NCBI GenBank assembly: GCA_035317045.1
Contig: DATHHT010000017.1
Source of the DNA: Terracidiphilus sp.
Lineage (GTDB): Bacteria; Acidobacteriota; Terriglobia; Terriglobales; Acidobacteriaceae
DNA: 64,000 nucleotides
Direction: 5' to 3' (one strand)
A program made the translations under genes and the position numbers. The notes beneath the pieces were generated by a model that had not been told where the DNA came from, did no database searches, and saw only the letters and a list, made by a program, of their open reading frames with translations. Positions 10,626-45,770 of this stretch are shown piece by piece (positions within the stretch are counted from its first letter, which is position 1; the number at the start of each line of letters is the position of its first letter).

Positions 10626-10749
10626 GTGCTTTCCCACCCAAGCGGAGCTTGGATGGGGCACCCTGGTTCGTACCGATGTCTGAATTTTCACGGCAGATCC
10701 TTCGACTCCGCCTGGCCGAATAGCCGGCCAAACTTCGCTCAGGATGACA
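10626..10749 (+). repeat. Composite REP element (GGGGCACCC hairpin + GCAGATCCTTCG...CAGGATGACA element)
   Basis: First 77 nt or so near-identical to the sequence starting at 38434. Confidence 0.85.
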
Positions 10750-19920: not shown

Positions 19921-22167
19921 CTAGCTTAGCAATCCGAGTTCGCGGAGGAGGAAGGCGTAGTCGAAGGCGATCTCCTTCAAGTAGTCGTAGCGGCCGCTGG
20001 CGCCGCCGTGGCCGGCTTCCATGTTGGTGACTAAGAGAAGCGGATTGCCATCGGTTTTTAGTGCGCGGAGTTTGGCTACGTACTTTGCGGGTTCCCAGTA
20101 CATGACCTGGCTGTCGTTGAGCGAGGTCTTGACTAACATGGCTGGATAACTTGCTGATTTCAAGTTATCGTAGGGCGAGTAACTCAACATGTATTTGAAG
20201 TAAGCTTCCTGATTGGGATCGCCCCACTCTTCGTATTCGGGCACGGTGAGCGGGAGAGACGCGTCAAGCATGGTGTTCATGACGTCGACGAAGGGGACGT
20301 GGGAGAGGACGGCACGAAAGAGATCGGGGCGGAGGTTGGTGACGGCGCCCATGAGGAGTCCACCAGCGGAGCCACCCTCGATGGCGACGCGGGCGGGATC
20401 GCCGTAGCCGTTGGCGGTGAGGTGCACGGTCGCCGAGATGAAATCGGTGAAGGTGTTCAGTTTAACGAGCATTTTTCCGGCGTCGTGCCAGGGCTTGCCG
20501 AGGTCGCCTCCGCCGCGAATGTGGGCGTAAGCGATGACGATGCCGCGATCGAGGAGGCTGAGGCGGTTGGAATTAAAGCCGAGCGGGAGGGCGTAGCCGT
20601 AAGAGCCGTATCCGTAGACATAGAGCGGTGATCGATTCGCATCGTGGCTGGTTGAGTCTTGAGCTTTCCCACTCTCGACCCGAGAAGACTGTGTCGAGGA
20701 TGGGGCACCCAGGTTCTTTGCAAATCGGTCGCGGCGATAGACGAGGGATATAGGCACTTGGACGCCGTCGGGTGCGGTGGCGTGGATGCGCTCGCTGGCG
20801 TAAAGGGTGCGGTCGAATCCGCCGGGGACTTCCTGCTGCTTGAGGAGATCGGACTGGCGGGTCTCGAGGTCGTATTCGTAGACGGATCCCGGGGTGACAA
20901 GGGACTGGTAGCCGTAGCGGAAGAGTTTCGTCTCCCAGATGCGGTTGATACCGGATGAGGCGCTGTAGGCGGGCTCGGGGAAGGCGATTTCGCCGGCGGG
21001 ATTGGCATCGGGAGTTTCGTCCTGGAACTTCCAGAGGCGGAGGCGCGGCAGGCCATCTTCGCGTTCGCAGGCGACAAAGAAGTTGGCGAAGAGATCGATG
21101 TCTTCGAGCATGACGGTGTCGCGGTGAGGGATGCGCTCGACCCAGTTTTCACGCGTGGGCGCATTGAGGGGTGCGGTGACGAGGCGGAAGTTGCGGCCGC
21201 GATCGTTGGTGCGGATGAACCATTGGCCGTTGCGGTGGTCGACGGAGTATTCGTGCTCGTCTTCGCGGGGACTGATGAGGATGAACTCGCCGCTGGGCTG
21301 GTCGGCGGGGAGAACGCGGCACTCGGTGGTGGTATGGCTGCCGGATTCGAGGATGATGAACTTGCCGTCGCGCGTGCGGCCTGCGCCAATGTTGAAGCGC
21401 TCGTCGTCATCCTGGTAGACGAGGACGTCGGAGGCGTGAGGCGCGTGGAGGGTGTGGCGGAAGAGTTGGAACTGACGCTTCTGTTCTTCGTCTTCGACGG
21501 AGTAGAGGAGCGTGATGTTGTCGGACGCCCAGGTTACGGAGCCTACACGCTCGACTTTGCCTGGAAGGGTTTCGCCGGTCTTGAGGTCCTTGATGTGGAG
21601 CGTGTATTGGCGGAAGCCGGTGAAGTCCACGGTGTAGGCGAGCCAGCGGCCATCGTCGGAGATGTCGGTGGCGCCGATAGAGAAGAAGGCCTGGCCTTCG
21701 GCGAGCTGGTTGCCGTCGAGGATGATGTTTTCGGGAGCGTCTGGTCCGGGTTGAGTGTTGCGGTCTCCCACCCTTGACAGCGATGAAGCTGCTGTCAAGG
21801 ATGGGGCGCCCGGGCTTGATGGGGCATCCGGGTTTGTGTCAGATGCGCGCTTGCGGCAGAAGATGGAGTATTGCTTTCCCTCTTCGGTGCGGATGTAGTA
21901 CCACCAGTCGCCTTCGCGGTAGGGGGCGGACTCGTCGGTCTGCTTGATGTGGCTGAGCATCTCGTTGTAGAGCTGATCGCGCAGGGGAGCGAGGTCGGCG
22001 GTGTCGGCTTCGGCGTAGGCGTTTTCAGCGTTTAGGTAGGCAGTGACTTCAGGATTTTCCTTGTCGCGGAGCCAGGCGTAGTCGTCGGAGAGGGTGATGC
22101 CGTGGAGGACGGTTTCGTGGTGGTCCTTGCGAGCGATGGGCGGTGTGAAGGATGTTTGGTCGGTCAT
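19921..22167 (-). CDS. ptrB: Oligopeptidase B (S9A)
   Basis: DDYAWLRD, GYGSYG, HIRGGG; catalytic GGSAGG, NDSQV and GHGGA; start MTDQTS at 22167; carries two REP-derived inserts. Confidence 0.93.
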   Translation of the reverse strand: MTDQTSFTPPIARKDHHETVLHGITLSDDYAWLRDKENPEVTAYLNAENAYAEADTADLAPLRDQLYNEMLSHIKQTDESAPYREGDWWYYIRTEEGKQYSIFCRKRASDTNPDAPSSPGAPSLTAASSLSRVGDRNTQPGPDAPENIILDGNQLAEGQAFFSIGATDISDDGRWLAYTVDFTGFRQYTLHIKDLKTGETLPGKVERVGSVTWASDNITLLYSVEDEEQKRQFQLFRHTLHAPHASDVLVYQDDDERFNIGAGRTRDGKFIILESGSHTTTECRVLPADQPSGEFILISPREDEHEYSVDHRNGQWFIRTNDRGRNFRLVTAPLNAPTRENWVERIPHRDTVMLEDIDLFANFFVACEREDGLPRLRLWKFQDETPDANPAGEIAFPEPAYSASSGINRIWETKLFRYGYQSLVTPGSVYEYDLETRQSDLLKQQEVPGGFDRTLYASERIHATAPDGVQVPISLVYRRDRFAKNLGAPSSTQSSRVESGKAQDSTSHDANRSPLYVYGYGSYGYALPLGFNSNRLSLLDRGIVIAYAHIRGGGDLGKPWHDAGKMLVKLNTFTDFISATVHLTANGYGDPARVAIEGGSAGGLLMGAVTNLRPDLFRAVLSHVPFVDVMNTMLDASLPLTVPEYEEWGDPNQEAYFKYMLSYSPYDNLKSASYPAMLVKTSLNDSQVMYWEPAKYVAKLRALKTDGNPLLLVTNMEAGHGGASGRYDYLKEIAFDYAFLLRELGLLS
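20663..20710 (+). repeat. GGGGCACCC-family REP inside ptrB (in frame)
   Basis: gctttCCCACTCTCGAC...GTCGAGGATGGGGCACCC. Confidence 0.8.
21767..21811 (+). repeat. GGGGCACCC-family REP inside ptrB (in frame)
   Basis: CCCACCCTTGACAGC...GCTGTCAAGGATGGGGCGCCC. Confidence 0.8.
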
Positions 22168-23105: not shown

Positions 23106-23352
23106 GTCCCTCCGGGATTGGGTTCATGTCGTCTGCTATCCCCAGGGTTCCGCTGCGCTCCACCCTGGGCTATTTTCCTGCGTTCCCTCCCGGAACTTCG
23201 TGGAGGCCGTTTGCTCAGAGTGACAGGGCAGAGGTGAAAGGCCCCGTGCGCCCGCTGTTCTGATTCGGACCGGCCCTACGGGGCGGGAGGCGATGGCTCG
23301 GATTTGTCCCAGGGTTTCACCCTGGGCTATTATCGGACGTCCCTGCGGGACC
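23106..23352 (+). repeat. CCCAGGG/CCCTGGG-type REP doublet
   Basis: Two CCCAGGGTT...CACCCTGGGCTATT hairpins; CGGCCCTACGGGGCGG (23271-23286) shared with 42417-42432. Confidence 0.75.
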
Positions 23353-24896: not shown

Positions 24897-25025
24897 CAGT
24901 TTTCAGTTATCAGTTTTCAGTTAGCCGATCCCAGGTCTCAAAAGCGAGACCTGGGGCACCCAGGTTGGTGTTTCCGCTTGGTGCATTCAGCTTTCCCACC
25001 CTTGCTTCGCAAGGATGGGGCACCC
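24897..25025 (+). repeat. CAGTTWT heptamer array plus two GGGGCACCC REPs
   Basis: CAGTTTT CAGTTAT CAGTTTT CAGTTAG; cccaggtctcaaaagcgagacctggggcaccc; cccacccttgcttcgcaaggatggggcaccc; between convergent genes. Confidence 0.85.
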
Positions 25026-25793: not shown

Positions 25794-26501
25794 ATGACAG
25801 ACGATCGTAAGGCAGGTTTGGCGTTCATTGCCGGTTCCATTGGCGGCATGGTAACGATGGCGATTCACCCAACGAGTGCTGGAGTGCTGACGCCGGCGCA
25901 GTTCGAGCGGCTCGCGGTGGTATCGGGGATTGCACACTCCTTGGCGATGGTGAGCTTTCTGGTGATGTTTTTGGGAGCGATCGGTCTGACGAGGCGGCTC
26001 GCGGCGCGAGAGGGCGAGCGGCAGGATCGGCTGGCGATTTCCGGGTTGGTTGGCTATGGATTCGGCGCTGTTGCTTTGCTGCTGGCTACGGCAGTAAGCG
26101 GCTTCATTGTTCCGGACATCATGAGGCACATGATTCGCGACGGCGCAGCGAATGTTTCGCAGTGGCGGATGATCATTGATGCGGTCTTCCAGTTCAACCA
26201 GGCGTTCGCGCGGATCTACTCGGTGGCAGCGTCGGTGGCGGTGATGCTCTGGTCGGTATCGGCGCTGCGGAATGGCGGGTTGGGAAAGGTGATTGCTGTT
26301 TATGGATGCTTGATTGCGCCGGTGTTGATTGTGCTGATCGGTGTGGGGCATCTGCGGCTGGATGTGCATGGGATGGCGGCGGTGGTGCTGGCACATGCGA
26401 TCTGGTTTGTGGGGGTGGGGGTGGAGATGTGGAAGGCAGTCTCTCATGTAGACATCGCTTCCCAGATCTCAGAAGCGAGACCTGGGGCTCCCAGGCAGTG
26501 A
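25794..26501 (+). CDS. Multi-pass membrane protein (about 6 TM); last codons supplied by a REP
   Basis: Hydrophobic segments throughout; divergent from tetR; C-terminal SQISEARPGAPRQ is translated REP (26461-26492). Confidence 0.8.
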   Translation: MTDDRKAGLAFIAGSIGGMVTMAIHPTSAGVLTPAQFERLAVVSGIAHSLAMVSFLVMFLGAIGLTRRLAAREGERQDRLAISGLVGYGFGAVALLLATAVSGFIVPDIMRHMIRDGAANVSQWRMIIDAVFQFNQAFARIYSVAASVAVMLWSVSALRNGGLGKVIAVYGCLIAPVLIVLIGVGHLRLDVHGMAAVVLAHAIWFVGVGVEMWKAVSHVDIASQISEARPGAPRQ

Positions 26502-26971: not shown

Positions 26972-27187
26972 GCAGATTCTTCGCGCCGCTTACCCCATGA
27001 GCGCTGGCGCGTTCTCAAGGCCCCAAGCGTGCGGCACTCAGGTTGACACGAATGGAGTGAGCATTGTGCTTTTCCACCCTTGCTTCGCAAGGATGGGGCT
27101 GCACCCAGAGAATTTGGACTTCATGGTTCTGATTTCGTAGTTTTGCCACTCATGGCGCGATGAGTCTACGCCATGAATGGGGCACCC
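26972..27187 (+). repeat. REP cluster (one GCAGAT...TGACAC element plus two GGGGCACCC hairpins)
   Basis: Copies at 26972-27049, 27066-27106 and 27146-27187. Confidence 0.8.
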
Positions 27188-28328: not shown

Positions 28329-28366
28329 GACCCCACGAACCAGGACCTGTTCGCAGGGACCCCGCG
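28329..28366 (+). repeat. CCCCACGAAC...GTTCG-type REP
   Basis: gaccccacgaaccaggacctgttcgcagggaccccg; related copy at 45104-45133. Confidence 0.6.
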
Positions 28367-33071: not shown

Positions 33072-33140
33072 CTTTTCTCTGAAGGCGATGCAATCCTGAC
33101 GCTGGAGCGGAATTAAGTTGGCTGGCCGAACTGGTAGATT

Positions 33141-33171
33141 CCCACCCTTGCTACGCAAGGATGGGGCACCC
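33141..33171 (+). repeat. GGGGCACCC REP
   Basis: cccacccttgctacgcaaggatggggcaccc. Confidence 0.85.
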
Positions 33172-34083: not shown

Positions 34084-34152
34084 GTGGGGACTTCAGTATT
34101 TTGGGGAGTGTCCGAAGAACCTCATTTAGGAGATCCTTCGGCTTGCATCCCT

Positions 34153-34184
34153 CCCAGGTCTCAGAAGCGAGGCCTGGGGCACCC
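34153..34184 (+). repeat. GGGGCACCC REP (CCCAGGTCTC variant)
   Basis: cccaggtctcagaagcgaggcctggggcaccc. Confidence 0.85.
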
Positions 34185-38433: not shown

Positions 38434-38535
38434 GTGCTTTCCCACCCAAGCAGAGCTTGGATGGGGCACCCTCGTTCGTGCCGGTGTCTGAAATTTCACG
38501 GCAGATCCTTTGAATTCGCTCCACTCAGGAGGACG
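38434..38535 (+). repeat. Composite REP element, sister of 10626-10749
   Basis: gtgctttcccacccaagcagagcttggatggggcaccctcgttcgtgccggtgtctgaaatttcacggcagatcctt. Confidence 0.85.
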
Positions 38536-40193: not shown

Positions 40194-40389
40194 GCAGTCC
40201 TTCGCGCCGCTTACCCCACTCTGTGAGACCCCAAGCGTGCGCGGCTCAGGATGACACGGGCTGGGTTTGTCCAACGGCTGGGGTGTGTTCGTGCTTTCCC
40301 ACCCTTGCTTCGCAAGGATGGGGCACCCGGCAACGGCTGGGGTGGGTTCGTGCTTTCCCAGCCTTGCTTCGCAAGGATGGGGCACCCGG
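40194..40389 (+). repeat. REP cluster with a 59-bp tandem duplication
   Basis: CAGGATGACAC-type element at 40194-40257; units 40272-40330 and 40331-40389 differ at 2 nt. Confidence 0.9.
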
Positions 40390-40391
40390 CT

Positions 40392-41579
40392 TCAACTCGA
40401 CATGATGAGTTTTGGGACGCGGGATTCGGGGGGCGGGAGTGCTGGGAAGTCGGCGTGGGGCTCGGTCTGGTACCAGTAGGCGACGGAGTAGAAGTCGTCG
40501 GCACGGTCGTTGGCGTGGCCGTGTTCGATCGTGACCTTGATGGACTTGTCGAAGGTGATGAAGCTCTCGGTGTGCCAGCGGTAGAGGCAATAGCGGCCGC
40601 CGGTGCGTTCCGGGTCGATGATGTAGGGCGCGCCCTGGCGGAGATTGGCGAAGGCGTTGCCGTAGAAATCCCATGCGCCGTTGTAATAGTCCTCGGTACC
40701 GGTGCCGTCGATGGTGGGCTGTGAGTCGCCATCGATGAAGAACATATCGTCGCCTTCGCCGAACCAGCCGTCGGCGTTTTGGAGGACGCCGTGGGTGACG
40801 CCGACGAAGTGTCCGCGACCGGTGGCTTCGAGGAAGACGTAGTTGTCATGGCCGTTGAGATTTTTGCCGCTGGCGTTGGCGGATTTTTTGCACGGCGCGG
40901 CTTGGCGATATTGAGCGTGGAAGCGGCCGAGGTTAGCTGGTAATGCAGAGACGGCGGTGTAATCGATGGCGTAGTAGAGATTGTTGGTTCGGACTTTGCC
41001 CTCGTTGCTGATGGTGATTCTGGCAGCGGTGTCGAAGGGCATCTGGAAGTAGGCGTTGAGGGCCTTCATGGGAGCGACGACGAGCAGCGCGGACTGGTAG
41101 ACGAAATAGTCGCCGAGCATGAGGCCGTAGAAGTCGCCGATTGGAGCTTCGATGGAGGGAGAAGATTCGCCGTCCCACCATGCGCGGAGGACGAGATTCT
41201 TGAGATGCATGTGGTCATCGGAGTTGATGGTGAACCAGATGTGTGTGATGACGCCGGGACCCTTGACGTCGAGCAAGGTGGCGGTGGCGCCGGGATCGAG
41301 GGGGATGAAGTCGCCGTTGCCGCCGGTGCGATCCCAACTAGAGGAGCGGCGACATTTGTAGTCGCGCAGGCGGGCCATGGAGACGAGGGCGTCGGGCGCT
41401 GACGGCAGAGTGGGAGCGGGCGGTTCGGCCTCTTTTTTTGTGGTAGCGGCAGAGGATGTGGCGGCGTCGAGGCCGAAGAGGGCGCCGGCGGCGGCGAGGG
41501 TGCCGAGCATTTTGCGGCGAGTGGGAGCGGCGGTGGTGTCGGTGTTGGCGAGATTGTCGGAGGGAATTTCGCTGGACAT
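40392..41579 (-). CDS. DUF2961 (GH172-like) glycoside hydrolase with Tat signal
   Basis: TRRKMLG; SSWDRTGGNGD, GPGVITHIW, WFGEGD, GTGTEDYY, IEHG. Confidence 0.88.
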   Translation of the reverse strand: MSSEIPSDNLANTDTTAAPTRRKMLGTLAAAGALFGLDAATSSAATTKKEAEPPAPTLPSAPDALVSMARLRDYKCRRSSSWDRTGGNGDFIPLDPGATATLLDVKGPGVITHIWFTINSDDHMHLKNLVLRAWWDGESSPSIEAPIGDFYGLMLGDYFVYQSALLVVAPMKALNAYFQMPFDTAARITISNEGKVRTNNLYYAIDYTAVSALPANLGRFHAQYRQAAPCKKSANASGKNLNGHDNYVFLEATGRGHFVGVTHGVLQNADGWFGEGDDMFFIDGDSQPTIDGTGTEDYYNGAWDFYGNAFANLRQGAPYIIDPERTGGRYCLYRWHTESFITFDKSIKVTIEHGHANDRADDFYSVAYWYQTEPHADFPALPPPESRVPKLIMSS

Positions 41580-44693: not shown

Positions 44694-45770
44694 ATGAGTA
44701 CAGTTCTTGTTACGGGTGGTTCGGGATTTATTGCCAGCCATACGATTGTGCAACTACTGGCGGCGGGATACCATGTGCGGACTACGGTGCGGAGTCTTTC
44801 GCGCGAGGGCGATGTGCGCGCGATGTTGAAGAACGGGGGCTGCGATCAGGCGAGCCGCCTCTCCTTTGTCGCGGCGGATCTGATGAACGATGCGGGGTGG
44901 CCGGCGGCGGTCGCTGGTTGCGAATTTGTGCTGCACATGGCTTCGCCGTTTCCTGCAAAGCTTCCGAAGGATGAGGATGAGTTGATTGTTCCGGCGCGCG
45001 AGGGTGCGCTACGGGTACTGCGCGCGGCCAGGGATGCGGGCGTGAAGCGCGTGGTGCTGACGTCGTCGTTTGCCGCCGTGGGATATGGGCATCCTCCACG
45101 GCGCGAACCGGGACCTGTTCGTGGGGGACCCGGTCCAGAGCAAGAGGAGGTTTTCACGGAGAAGGACTGGACTGATCCGACACAACCGGACGTAATGCCG
45201 TATACGAAATCGAAGACGCTGGCGGAACGGGCGGCGTGGGATTTTATCGCGCGCGACGGTGCGGGACTTGAGTTGGCTGTGGTGAATCCGGTAGGGGTGT
45301 TCGGACCGGTGCTGGGGCCGGATTATGCGACGTCGATTCTGCTGGTGCAGAAGATGATGGACGGTGAGATGCCGGGAGTTCCGCGGATGTGTATCGGCGT
45401 GGTGGATGTGCGCGATGTGGCGGATCTGCATTTGAAAGCAATGATGAATCCGCTGGCGAAGGGCGAGCGATTCCTGGCGGTGACAGGAGACTTCATGTGG
45501 CTGGTGGAAATCGCCAAGGTGATTAAAGCGCGGCTGGGCGACGCGGCGAAGCGGGTGCCAACGCGGCAGTTGCCCAACTGGCTGATGCGGCTGGCGGTGT
45601 TGAAAGAGCCGGCAGTGAAGCAGATTATTCCCGAGTTAGGCAAATGGAAAAATGCTACGAGCGAGAAAGCGCAACGCGTGCTGGGGTGGATGCCGCGTTC
45701 ACGCGAAGATAGCGTGGTGGCTACGGCGGAAAGCATGATACGGCTGGGGCTGCTGAGGAACAGGGACTAG
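44694..45770 (+). CDS. NAD-dependent epimerase/dehydratase (extended SDR, aldehyde reductase-like)
   Basis: VLVTGGSGFIA, LHMASP, VVLTSS, YTKSK; contains a REP-derived insert near 45100-45135. Confidence 0.9.
   Translation: MSTVLVTGGSGFIASHTIVQLLAAGYHVRTTVRSLSREGDVRAMLKNGGCDQASRLSFVAADLMNDAGWPAAVAGCEFVLHMASPFPAKLPKDEDELIVPAREGALRVLRAARDAGVKRVVLTSSFAAVGYGHPPRREPGPVRGGPGPEQEEVFTEKDWTDPTQPDVMPYTKSKTLAERAAWDFIARDGAGLELAVVNPVGVFGPVLGPDYATSILLVQKMMDGEMPGVPRMCIGVVDVRDVADLHLKAMMNPLAKGERFLAVTGDFMWLVEIAKVIKARLGDAAKRVPTRQLPNWLMRLAVLKEPAVKQIIPELGKWKNATSEKAQRVLGWMPRSREDSVVATAESMIRLGLLRNRD

Follow-up and report, generated by a model that had tools for sequence, protein, structure and literature searches.

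The ptrB gene of a Terracidiphilus sp. genome (GenBank assembly GCA_035317045.1), which encodes oligopeptidase B (OpB), carries two copies of a repeated hairpin within its coding sequence. The gene lies on contig DATHHT010000017.1, in a stretch of 64,000 nucleotides that was analysed as a whole and is referred to here as the window. The hairpin, termed family A, has the form gtgcttTCCCACCC..stem-loop..GGATGGGGCACCC and, like a sister family B, belongs to the repetitive extragenic palindromic (REP) type of repeat associated with REP-associated tyrosine transposases (RAYTs). The ptrB inserts are very probably REP-RAYT hairpin copies that were inserted in an ancestor and are now read as disordered loops tolerated by an enzyme that remains functional. 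A preliminary description of the window, made from its letters alone, had claimed that two hairpin copies lie in ptrB without breaking the frame. This was confirmed, as the open reading frame (ORF) of 748 amino acids (aa) is uninterrupted and the hairpin family occurs far above chance. The source genome is a 44-contig draft of 5.29 Mb (contigs labelled C with a number), and orthologous loci from other genomes are labelled L0xx/L1xx.

The insert at the C site lies between VYRRDRFAKN, the final strand on the propeller side, and PLYVYGYGSYG, the catalytic domain's first strand, while that at the N site occupies a loop in the first propeller blade, between FCRKR and PENIILDG (Table 1). Measured by DNA alignment against the closest orthologs that have no insert, the net lengths are 75 nt (C) and 87 nt (N), both of them multiples of three and free of stop codons; at 25 and 29 aa, the inserts agree with the loop insertions of roughly 25-30 aa first described. 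The PtrB translation contains ...VYRRDRFAKNLGAPSSTQSSRVESGKAQDSTSHDANRSPLYVYGYG... and ...FCRKRASDTNPDAPSSPGAPSLTAASSLSRVGDRNTQPGPDAPENIILD..., the insert-spanning stretches being FCRKRAS..GAPSLTAASSLSR..ENIILDGNQLAEGQ and DRFAKNLGAPSSTQSSR.., and the insert peptides originally quoted are present in it exactly. The hairpins had been placed at 20663-20710 and 21767-21811; these sites hold, with the exact ends corrected to 20667-20710 and 21766-21811. Folded as RNA in the mRNA sense, the N-site hairpin reaches -38.3 kcal/mol (z = -5.05), with none of 200 shuffles equally stable, while the C-site hairpin gives -22.8 kcal/mol (z = -1.44). Next to the N-site hairpin, the query keeps only a GATGGGGCATCC-GGGTTTGTG remnant where the ortholog L034 has a full second element. 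When mapped on an AlphaFold2 model, the inserts fall at loop positions, residues 111-141 (N) and 487-507 (C) having predicted local distance difference test (pLDDT) scores below 50 and no regular secondary structure. Both are thus predicted to be disordered, and the conserved open frame suggests that both are translated.

Only the first arm of the hairpin is read alike in the two inserts (GGT GCC CCA TCC, giving GAPS). The 'SRV' shared after both inserts was considered as a sign of the same second-arm frame and rejected, the frames being different (..GTG GGA.. vs ..AGT GGG..). An origin of GAPS as a convergent motif at the protein level was also rejected, for the DNA hairpin is mostly intergenic, has a co-varying stem and flanks RAYT genes. 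An intrinsic terminator was rejected as well: no T-run follows the element in either orientation, its location is mid-gene and the frame is conserved. At the N site, the empty locus L035 reads GGCAC|CACT and L032 has 57 nt between the same positions; comparison of filled and empty ptrB sites gave no convincing target-site duplication (possibly CAC only), which fits Y1-type transposition and proves nothing.

For comparison, 80 further orthologous Acidobacteriaceae loci were collected (Terracidiphilus, Occallatibacter savannae and metagenome-assembled genomes (MAGs)), and 70 of these were aligned with the query to give 71 proteins. The N-site loop measures 13-22 aa in 52 of them (13-15 aa in orthologs with no insert) and 42 aa in the query; the C-site loop measures 8-15 aa in 53 and 35 aa in the query. 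The HMMER alignment to the Serratia proteamaculans enzyme (7ywp) is interrupted exactly at query residues 110-148 and 485-513, and in tblastn searches of 24 same-genus genomes most matches were split at the two insert sites. The short loops that had been ascribed to PtrB orthologs at both sites are therefore seen in 7ywp and in 52-53 of the 71 Acidobacteriaceae proteins, and alignment with close relatives verified the indels: REP-less orthologs do not have equally long loops. The four closest relatives (L031-L034; 86-90% protein identity) possess both inserts at the same positions, with a 57-60 nt version of the N-site insertion in L031-L033. The insertions therefore predate these species (synonymous divergence, dS, 0.42-0.70), and the ptrB inserts are old, deriving from the ancestor of this species and four related Acidobacteriaceae species.

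Across the orthologs, the N loop holds family A (LGAPSLRLxSGARVGD) in ten proteins and family B (LGAPGLxxETWE) in nine; the C loop holds family A in five and other repeat-like inserts (VSQVPESGPGAP, VAPxSxPAVxGxSRP, LKGHDFSRA..GALAP) in thirteen. On a tree of the 71 orthologs built without the loop columns, the N loop requires a minimum of 11-14 state changes and the C loop a minimum of 12. Sister pairs with good support differ in family at the same loop (L042 with A vs L066 with B; L044 with B vs L077 with A). The two PtrB loops are hot spots across species, probably as permissive sites at which elements have been repeatedly acquired, exchanged or lost. The N loop of the L034 PtrB (L034:1462-3966, 835 aa) contains three elements and its C loop two; among these is a further repeat type, encoding LKGHDFSRA..GALAP, that is also found in L103 and L105. 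PtrB proteins range from 691 to 835 aa in length, a spread due purely to such inserts.

The enzyme itself resembles other members of its family. Pfam analysis identified the domains Peptidase_S9_N (PF02897, residues 9-445, 9.6e-110) and Peptidase_S9 (PF00326, residues 532-745, 9.1e-64), and the top solved relative is oligopeptidase B 7ywp (2.4e-168). PtrB has the two-domain architecture of the prolyl-oligopeptidase family, an N-terminal beta-propeller and a C-terminal alpha/beta-hydrolase, and is an S9A/OpB enzyme. Its catalytic triad, Ser600 (GGSAGG), Asp685 and His720, occupies invariant columns of the 71-sequence alignment. The AlphaFold2 model built from this alignment has a mean pLDDT of 77 and matches OpB 7zjz with a Foldseek template modelling (TM) score of 0.91. 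The ratio of nonsynonymous to synonymous divergence (dN/dS) is 0.10-0.11 against insert-bearing relatives and 0.12 against insert-free relatives; ptrB is therefore kept under normal purifying selection despite the inserts, and by its sequence the gene appears functional. It is scarcely credible that the repeats were misassembled into ptrB, or that ptrB is a dying gene with a frame open by chance. Draft genomes in this many contigs leave room for such an artefact, repeats being a classic source of misassembly, but four other genomes, each assembled independently, have both inserts at identical sites; as five independent assemblies agree, misassembly is excluded. An intact 748-aa ORF, an invariant triad and a dN/dS of 0.10 likewise speak against a pseudogene.

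The hairpin is abundant in the window and in the genome. The 13-mer GGATGGGGCRCCC, with one mismatch allowed, occurs nine times in the window against 0.35 expected, and nine or more were found in none of 100 shuffles; GGATGGGGCACCC occurs 74 times genome-wide, against none for the reversed control. Most genomes of the genus likewise contain GGATGGGGCACCC in tens of copies; it is essentially absent from the sister family. A genome census yielded 179 good hairpins ending in TGGGGCACCC, among them 81 family-A and 74 family-B copies (about 155 in the two families). The foot TCCCA/TGGGG and the tail CACCC are common to both families. Family A reads GTTCGTGCTT-TCCCACCC..stem-loop..GGATGGGG-CACCC, in a unit of about 57-65 nt, its stems measuring 11-19 bp and a conserved GGGTTCGTGCTT standing in front; its conserved flanks are GTGCTT on the 5' side (exact in 31 of 81) and CACCC on the 3' side. 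Family B, nearly always 33 nt in length, reads TCCCAGGTCTC-6 nt-GAGACCTGGGG. Stems co-vary between copies (TTGC/GCAA, AAGC/GCTT, ATGCC/GGCAT and others), and among the 49 distinct left arms of family A, 91% of stem positions are paired, the shortfall being largely a conserved C-A mismatch. An Rfam search of the whole window (E up to 1) returned no family matching the hairpin, its sole hits, all elsewhere, being a tRNA and two matches to Acido-Lenti-1.

In the window, all 12 hairpins of families A and B lie on the plus strand, whatever the direction of the gene. Genome-wide, their orientation follows the local GC skew, the TGGGGCACCC strand being on the G-rich strand in 138 of 155 cases (Fisher p = 3.7e-24); this is the bias predicted for single-strand, replication-coupled Y1 transposition (PMC6006769). 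The contig bearing ptrB has an unusually strong GC skew of +0.154. Copies are mostly single or in direct tandem, with inverted pairs seen near RAYT genes. Direct tandem arrays of family A with periods of 59-65 nt occur in the window (40297-40387, plus strand) and at C2:242116-242343. These periods suggest a unit of about 60 nt, matching the 57-60 nt net insertion in ptrB of L031-L033. By their copy number, mostly intergenic location, association with RAYT genes and orientation, the elements are REP-type repeats.

Three genes in the genome match the Pfam domain Y1_Tnp. One is an intact RAYT, which scores 105.5 bits with NF047646 (cut-off 80). Inverted family-B hairpins flank it at C25:40195-40227 (minus) and 40782-40814 (plus), and its C-terminal residues (..KTQVSNARPGAPSSL) are encoded by the downstream hairpin. 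About 3.5 kb away lies a paralog that is a pseudogene, flanked by family-A hairpins (region C25:43572-45059). The remaining one, on C34, fails to match the REP-associated model and resembles only that of IS200/IS605 transposases (NF033573), with which it scores 50.6 bits, just short of the cut-off of 55. A RAYT flanked by inverted repeat copies is the arrangement of a REPtron. Nunvar (2010) is reportedly among the studies describing REP-RAYT systems.

By analogy with such systems, the RAYT is the putative mobilising enzyme of the hairpins. This HuH/Y1 enzyme would recognise the single-stranded hairpin by its foot (TCCCA/TGGGG) and tail (CACCC), and would move or copy the element on single-stranded DNA at the replication fork, so fixing its orientation relative to replication. 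Most insertions into genes would be lost; those that survive would be in frame, free of stops and in surface loops or linkers able to tolerate 20-30 extra residues. In ptrB, they would be read as disordered loops rich in Gly, Ala, Pro and Ser (..GAPS..), with the enzyme remaining functional. Spread with no part played by a RAYT, through homologous or microhomology recombination, gene conversion or template switching, in which an existing copy or a shared GGGTGCCCC core attracts more, is improbable. Such a process would suit the clustered inserts (three N and two C in L034, and a partial second core in the query), the tandem arrays with their 59-65 nt periods, the broken family-A RAYT, and the different families found at the same site in sister species, which could reflect replacement via the shared core. 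It leaves unexplained, however, the first arrivals in empty loops, the replication-linked orientation bias and the REPtron arrangement.

In-frame copies are not confined to ptrB. The genome-wide hairpin scan that had been proposed as a check found them also in uvrA, uvrC, uvrD, a second uvrA, a FAD-oxidase/Fe-S gene and a penicillin amidase gene, where they lie between or inside Pfam domains (Table 1). About a dozen hairpins are located inside verified genes, seven of the roughly twelve in only three genes. In ptrB, uvrA, uvrC and the FAD-oxidase/Fe-S gene, the first arm is read as GGT GCC CCA (G-A-P), the gene being opposite to the TGGGGCACCC strand. For family B, five of six frames are stop-free; the preference for the G-A-P frame therefore exceeds what stop avoidance requires, in a sample that is small and partly non-independent. 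In uvrA, a C-terminal extension runs through a hairpin.

Table 1. Coordinates of ptrB and its inserts, of the other family-A and family-B hairpins of the window, and of hairpin-bearing and RAYT genes elsewhere in the genome. Positions with no contig label refer to the window.
Feature	Position	Strand	Remarks
ptrB, oligopeptidase B (S9A serine peptidase)	19921-22167	minus	748 aa, uninterrupted ORF; Pfam and PDB matches
C-site insertion, 75 nt = 25 aa (LGAPSSTQSSRVESGKAQDSTSHDA, aa 486-510)	20638-20712	-	Absent from L035, L036, L038, L040, L041; present in L031-L034
Family-A REP hairpin in C-site insert, TCCCACTCTCGAC-13 nt loop-GTCGAGGATGGGG-CACCC	20667-20710	+	Stem partly decayed
N-site insertion, ~87 nt = 29 aa (~aa 110-138, DTNPDAPSSPGAPSLTAASSLSRVGDRNT...)	21754-21840	-	From comparison with insert-less orthologs
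Family-A REP hairpin in N-site insert, TCCCACCCTTGACAGCG-atgaagc-TGCTGTCAAGGATGGGG-CGCCC	21766-21811	+	Near-perfect 15-17 bp stem
Second-element remnant adjoining N-site hairpin, GATGGGGCATCC then GGGTTTGTG (matches family 3' flank consensus)	21818-21840	+	
Family-A hairpin, intergenic	10632-10663	+	
Family-B hairpin	24929-24961	+	
Family-A hairpin	24994-25025	+	
Family-B hairpin	26460-26492	+	
Family-A hairpin	27144-27187	+	
Family-A hairpin	33140-33171	+	
Family-B hairpin	34152-34184	+	
Family-A hairpin	38440-38471	+	
Family-A hairpins, tandem	40297-40328 and 40356-40387	+	59-nt period
uvrA	C43:13407-16625		Two family B; AGAPGLDSETGDG and C-terminal KLGAPGLASETWEG
uvrC	C43:19733-21847		One family A, two family B; DLGAPSLMESRVGNN (A copy)
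UvrD-type helicase	C42:110939-113758		One copy
Second uvrA	C18:6108-9125		One copy
FAD-oxidase/Fe-S protein	C27		One copy; NLGAPSLRRCSDARVG
Penicillin amidase	C12		One copy
Intact RAYT	C25:~40286-40826		NF047646, 105.5 bits (cut-off 80); motifs PEHVHLL, WQPRYYD, YMHRNPV
RAYT paralog, pseudogene	C25:43700-44330	-	In-frame TAA; HVH changed to HVD

Two further hairpin types were observed in the window. A third-type hairpin (CCACGGCGCGAACCGGGACCTGTTCGTGGGGGACCC, 45094-45131, plus strand) is located in a plus-strand ORF (44694-45770) whose product resembles NAD-dependent epimerases/dehydratases; it is in frame and encodes RREPGPVRGGPGP between YGHPP and EQEEVFTEKDW. It has one other copy in the genome within five mismatches (C33), and a similar sequence occurs at 28336-28364 of the window. 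The Acido-Lenti-1 (RF01687) matches lie at 23141-23197 and 23308-23352 (plus strand), with scores of 30.7 bits (below gathering) and 40.4 bits (above the gathering threshold of 37). This pair is intergenic, just downstream of the short-chain dehydrogenase/reductase (SDR) gene beside ptrB, and constitutes an unrelated second repeated hairpin module.

Several observations weigh against the account of the ptrB inserts as RAYT-mobilised REP copies carried as tolerated loops. The aligned hairpin copies show no consensus GTAG or CGTC tag at the foot. The RAYT flanked by family A is broken, so that present mobility of this family either needs cross-mobilisation by the family-B RAYT or is extinct. The intragenic census was drawn up from stop-to-stop ORFs with Pfam matches rather than with a gene caller, and is a lower bound that includes some uncertain cases (the ORFs at C33:146468-148186 and C25:40833-42065 seem spurious, and C27:82451-84937 probably precedes the true start). 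Most directly, 8-10% of sites in the hairpin segments of the inserts differ from L031-L033, as against 26-36% of four-fold sites in the same gene (p = 0.0025 to 3e-7); conservation of the hairpin DNA in ptrB is thus three to four times that of synonymous sites. The N-site stem of the query differs from that of L032/L033 by only two changes, and these form a compensatory pair, TTG..CAA to ATG..CAT (T-A to A-T). In view of this low divergence and the compensatory change, the hairpin does not behave as a purely neutral passenger. Such conservation could be produced by selection on the hairpin, by gene conversion from other copies or by re-insertion.

Selection could act on the intragenic hairpins as cis elements in DNA or RNA (mRNA-stabilising, ribosome-pausing, or a site for RAYT, gyrase or a nucleoid protein), or through an acquired role of the PtrB loops. 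We regard this explanation as unlikely. It draws on the divergence figures and compensatory pair just given, on the very stable N-site stem (z = -5.05) and on the retention of the inserts over a dS of 0.42-0.70. It has to contend, however, with a decayed C-site stem (z = -1.44), with close relatives (L035-L041) that do well with neither insert, and with sister species that carry different families at the same place; the sequence identity is, moreover, explicable by gene conversion or re-insertion. We infer that the ptrB inserts are neutral and tolerated, and the insertion of REP-RAYT hairpins in an ancestor is retained as the preferred explanation. A bolder possibility, which we consider doubtful, is that the hairpins are selected at the nucleic-acid level while being translated, the PtrB loops and the uvrA/uvrC linkers serving as landing pads and the REP-RAYT system as a lineage-wide generator and exchanger of loop segments. 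If this were true, REPs inside genes would act in cis (on mRNA stability, folding-related translational pausing or protein binding) and would not be tolerated junk.

These inserts extend the phenomenon of selfish DNA in protein genes, first described in Rickettsia, to free-living soil Acidobacteriaceae with RAYT-linked REPs. They also offer an unusually clean natural experiment in a single conserved enzyme: its more than 70 orthologs record, at each of the two loops, at least a dozen independent gains, losses or swaps, from which it can be measured which frames and peptides a loop tolerates and whether coding hairpins are constrained. In annotation and homology modelling, such inserts break up hidden Markov model (HMM) and BLAST alignments, as seen here, and make the proteins of acidobacterial genomes and MAGs longer. 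In literature searches, no description turned up of this repeat family or of intragenic REPs in Acidobacteriaceae.

Among known systems, members of the IS200/IS605 family (IS608, ISDra2; reviewed in PMC6006769) use a Y1 HuH enzyme that acts on subterminal hairpins in single-stranded DNA, with coupling to the lagging-strand template. The type of enzyme and the coupling of orientation are shared with the present elements, and the bias of 138/155 fits; the hairpins described here differ in being far shorter and in lacking a transposase gene. In REP/REPIN-RAYT 'REPtrons', a RAYT is flanked by inverted repeat copies (Bertels and Rainey 2011, PMC3116915; Quentin et al. 2018, PMC6006769). Likeness to these extends to a single-copy TnpA_REP Y1/HuH gene (HVH, WQ, YMHRNP; NF047646) with inverted flanking repeats, to one RAYT paralog per repeat family, and to vertical inheritance of the repeat across the genus. 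In contrast to REPtrons, the families described here have no GTAG tag and include a RAYT that is a pseudogene; nearly all copies are co-oriented with replication, and most appear to be single or in direct tandem rather than in inverted doublets, although inverted pairs do occur near the RAYT genes.

Rickettsia palindromic elements (RPEs; Ogata et al. 2000) are, according to the summaries in PMC10969869 and PMC3733652, AT-rich, about 100-150 bp long, restricted to Rickettsia and with no known transposase. Like them, the present hairpins are selfish palindromes in frame in conserved housekeeping genes, at fold-compatible positions. By size and host, they are set apart from the families RPE-1 to RPE-10 in being 45-65 nt long, GC-rich and RAYT-associated in an Acidobacteriaceae host. 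The comparison with RPEs made in the preliminary description is therefore apt for behaviour and not for family membership, the elements being RAYT-tied REPs and, by size and host, not RPE homologs. Its proposal that an RPE-like process is active in this lineage stands as far as RPE-like behaviour is concerned (other genes, many species). Present activity of family A is unsupported, because the inserts are shared at a dS of 0.42-0.70 and its RAYT is a pseudogene; an intact RAYT flanked by the sister family B does exist in the genome. Rickettsia was also correctly named as a source of in-frame palindromes in proteins, but the phenomenon is less novel than was assumed there, since in-frame REP insertions outside Rickettsia have been published (PMC3733652).

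In that survey (Di Nocera, De Gregorio and Rocco 2013, BMC Genomics 14:522), GTAG/CGTC-tagged REPs are reported of which some lie wholly within ORFs, in frame, adding about 20-30 aa; intragenic copies often occur two per gene, as in uvrA, and are frequent in uvrA, uvrC, uvrD and other repair genes. The bias towards repair genes is reported there for unrelated REP families in Opitutus, Thauera and Rickettsia, across several phyla. The consulted parts of that survey contain no mention that we found of oligopeptidase B as a target, or of the recurrent use of one enzyme's two loops across dozens of species. The present repeats are alike in being mostly extragenic, in having in-frame copies of 20-30 aa and in hitting the same repair genes; theirs are GTAG/CGTC-tagged and come mainly from Proteobacteria, Opitutus and Rickettsia, whereas those described here carry GTGCTT 5' and CACCC 3' and come from Acidobacteriaceae. 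Insertion of palindromes into genes is thus already known, both from Rickettsia and from Di Nocera et al. (2013). The present elements add to this that one enzyme's two loops have been used recurrently, that a separate hairpin family accompanies each of two RAYT paralogs, and that a hairpin is conserved in coding DNA.

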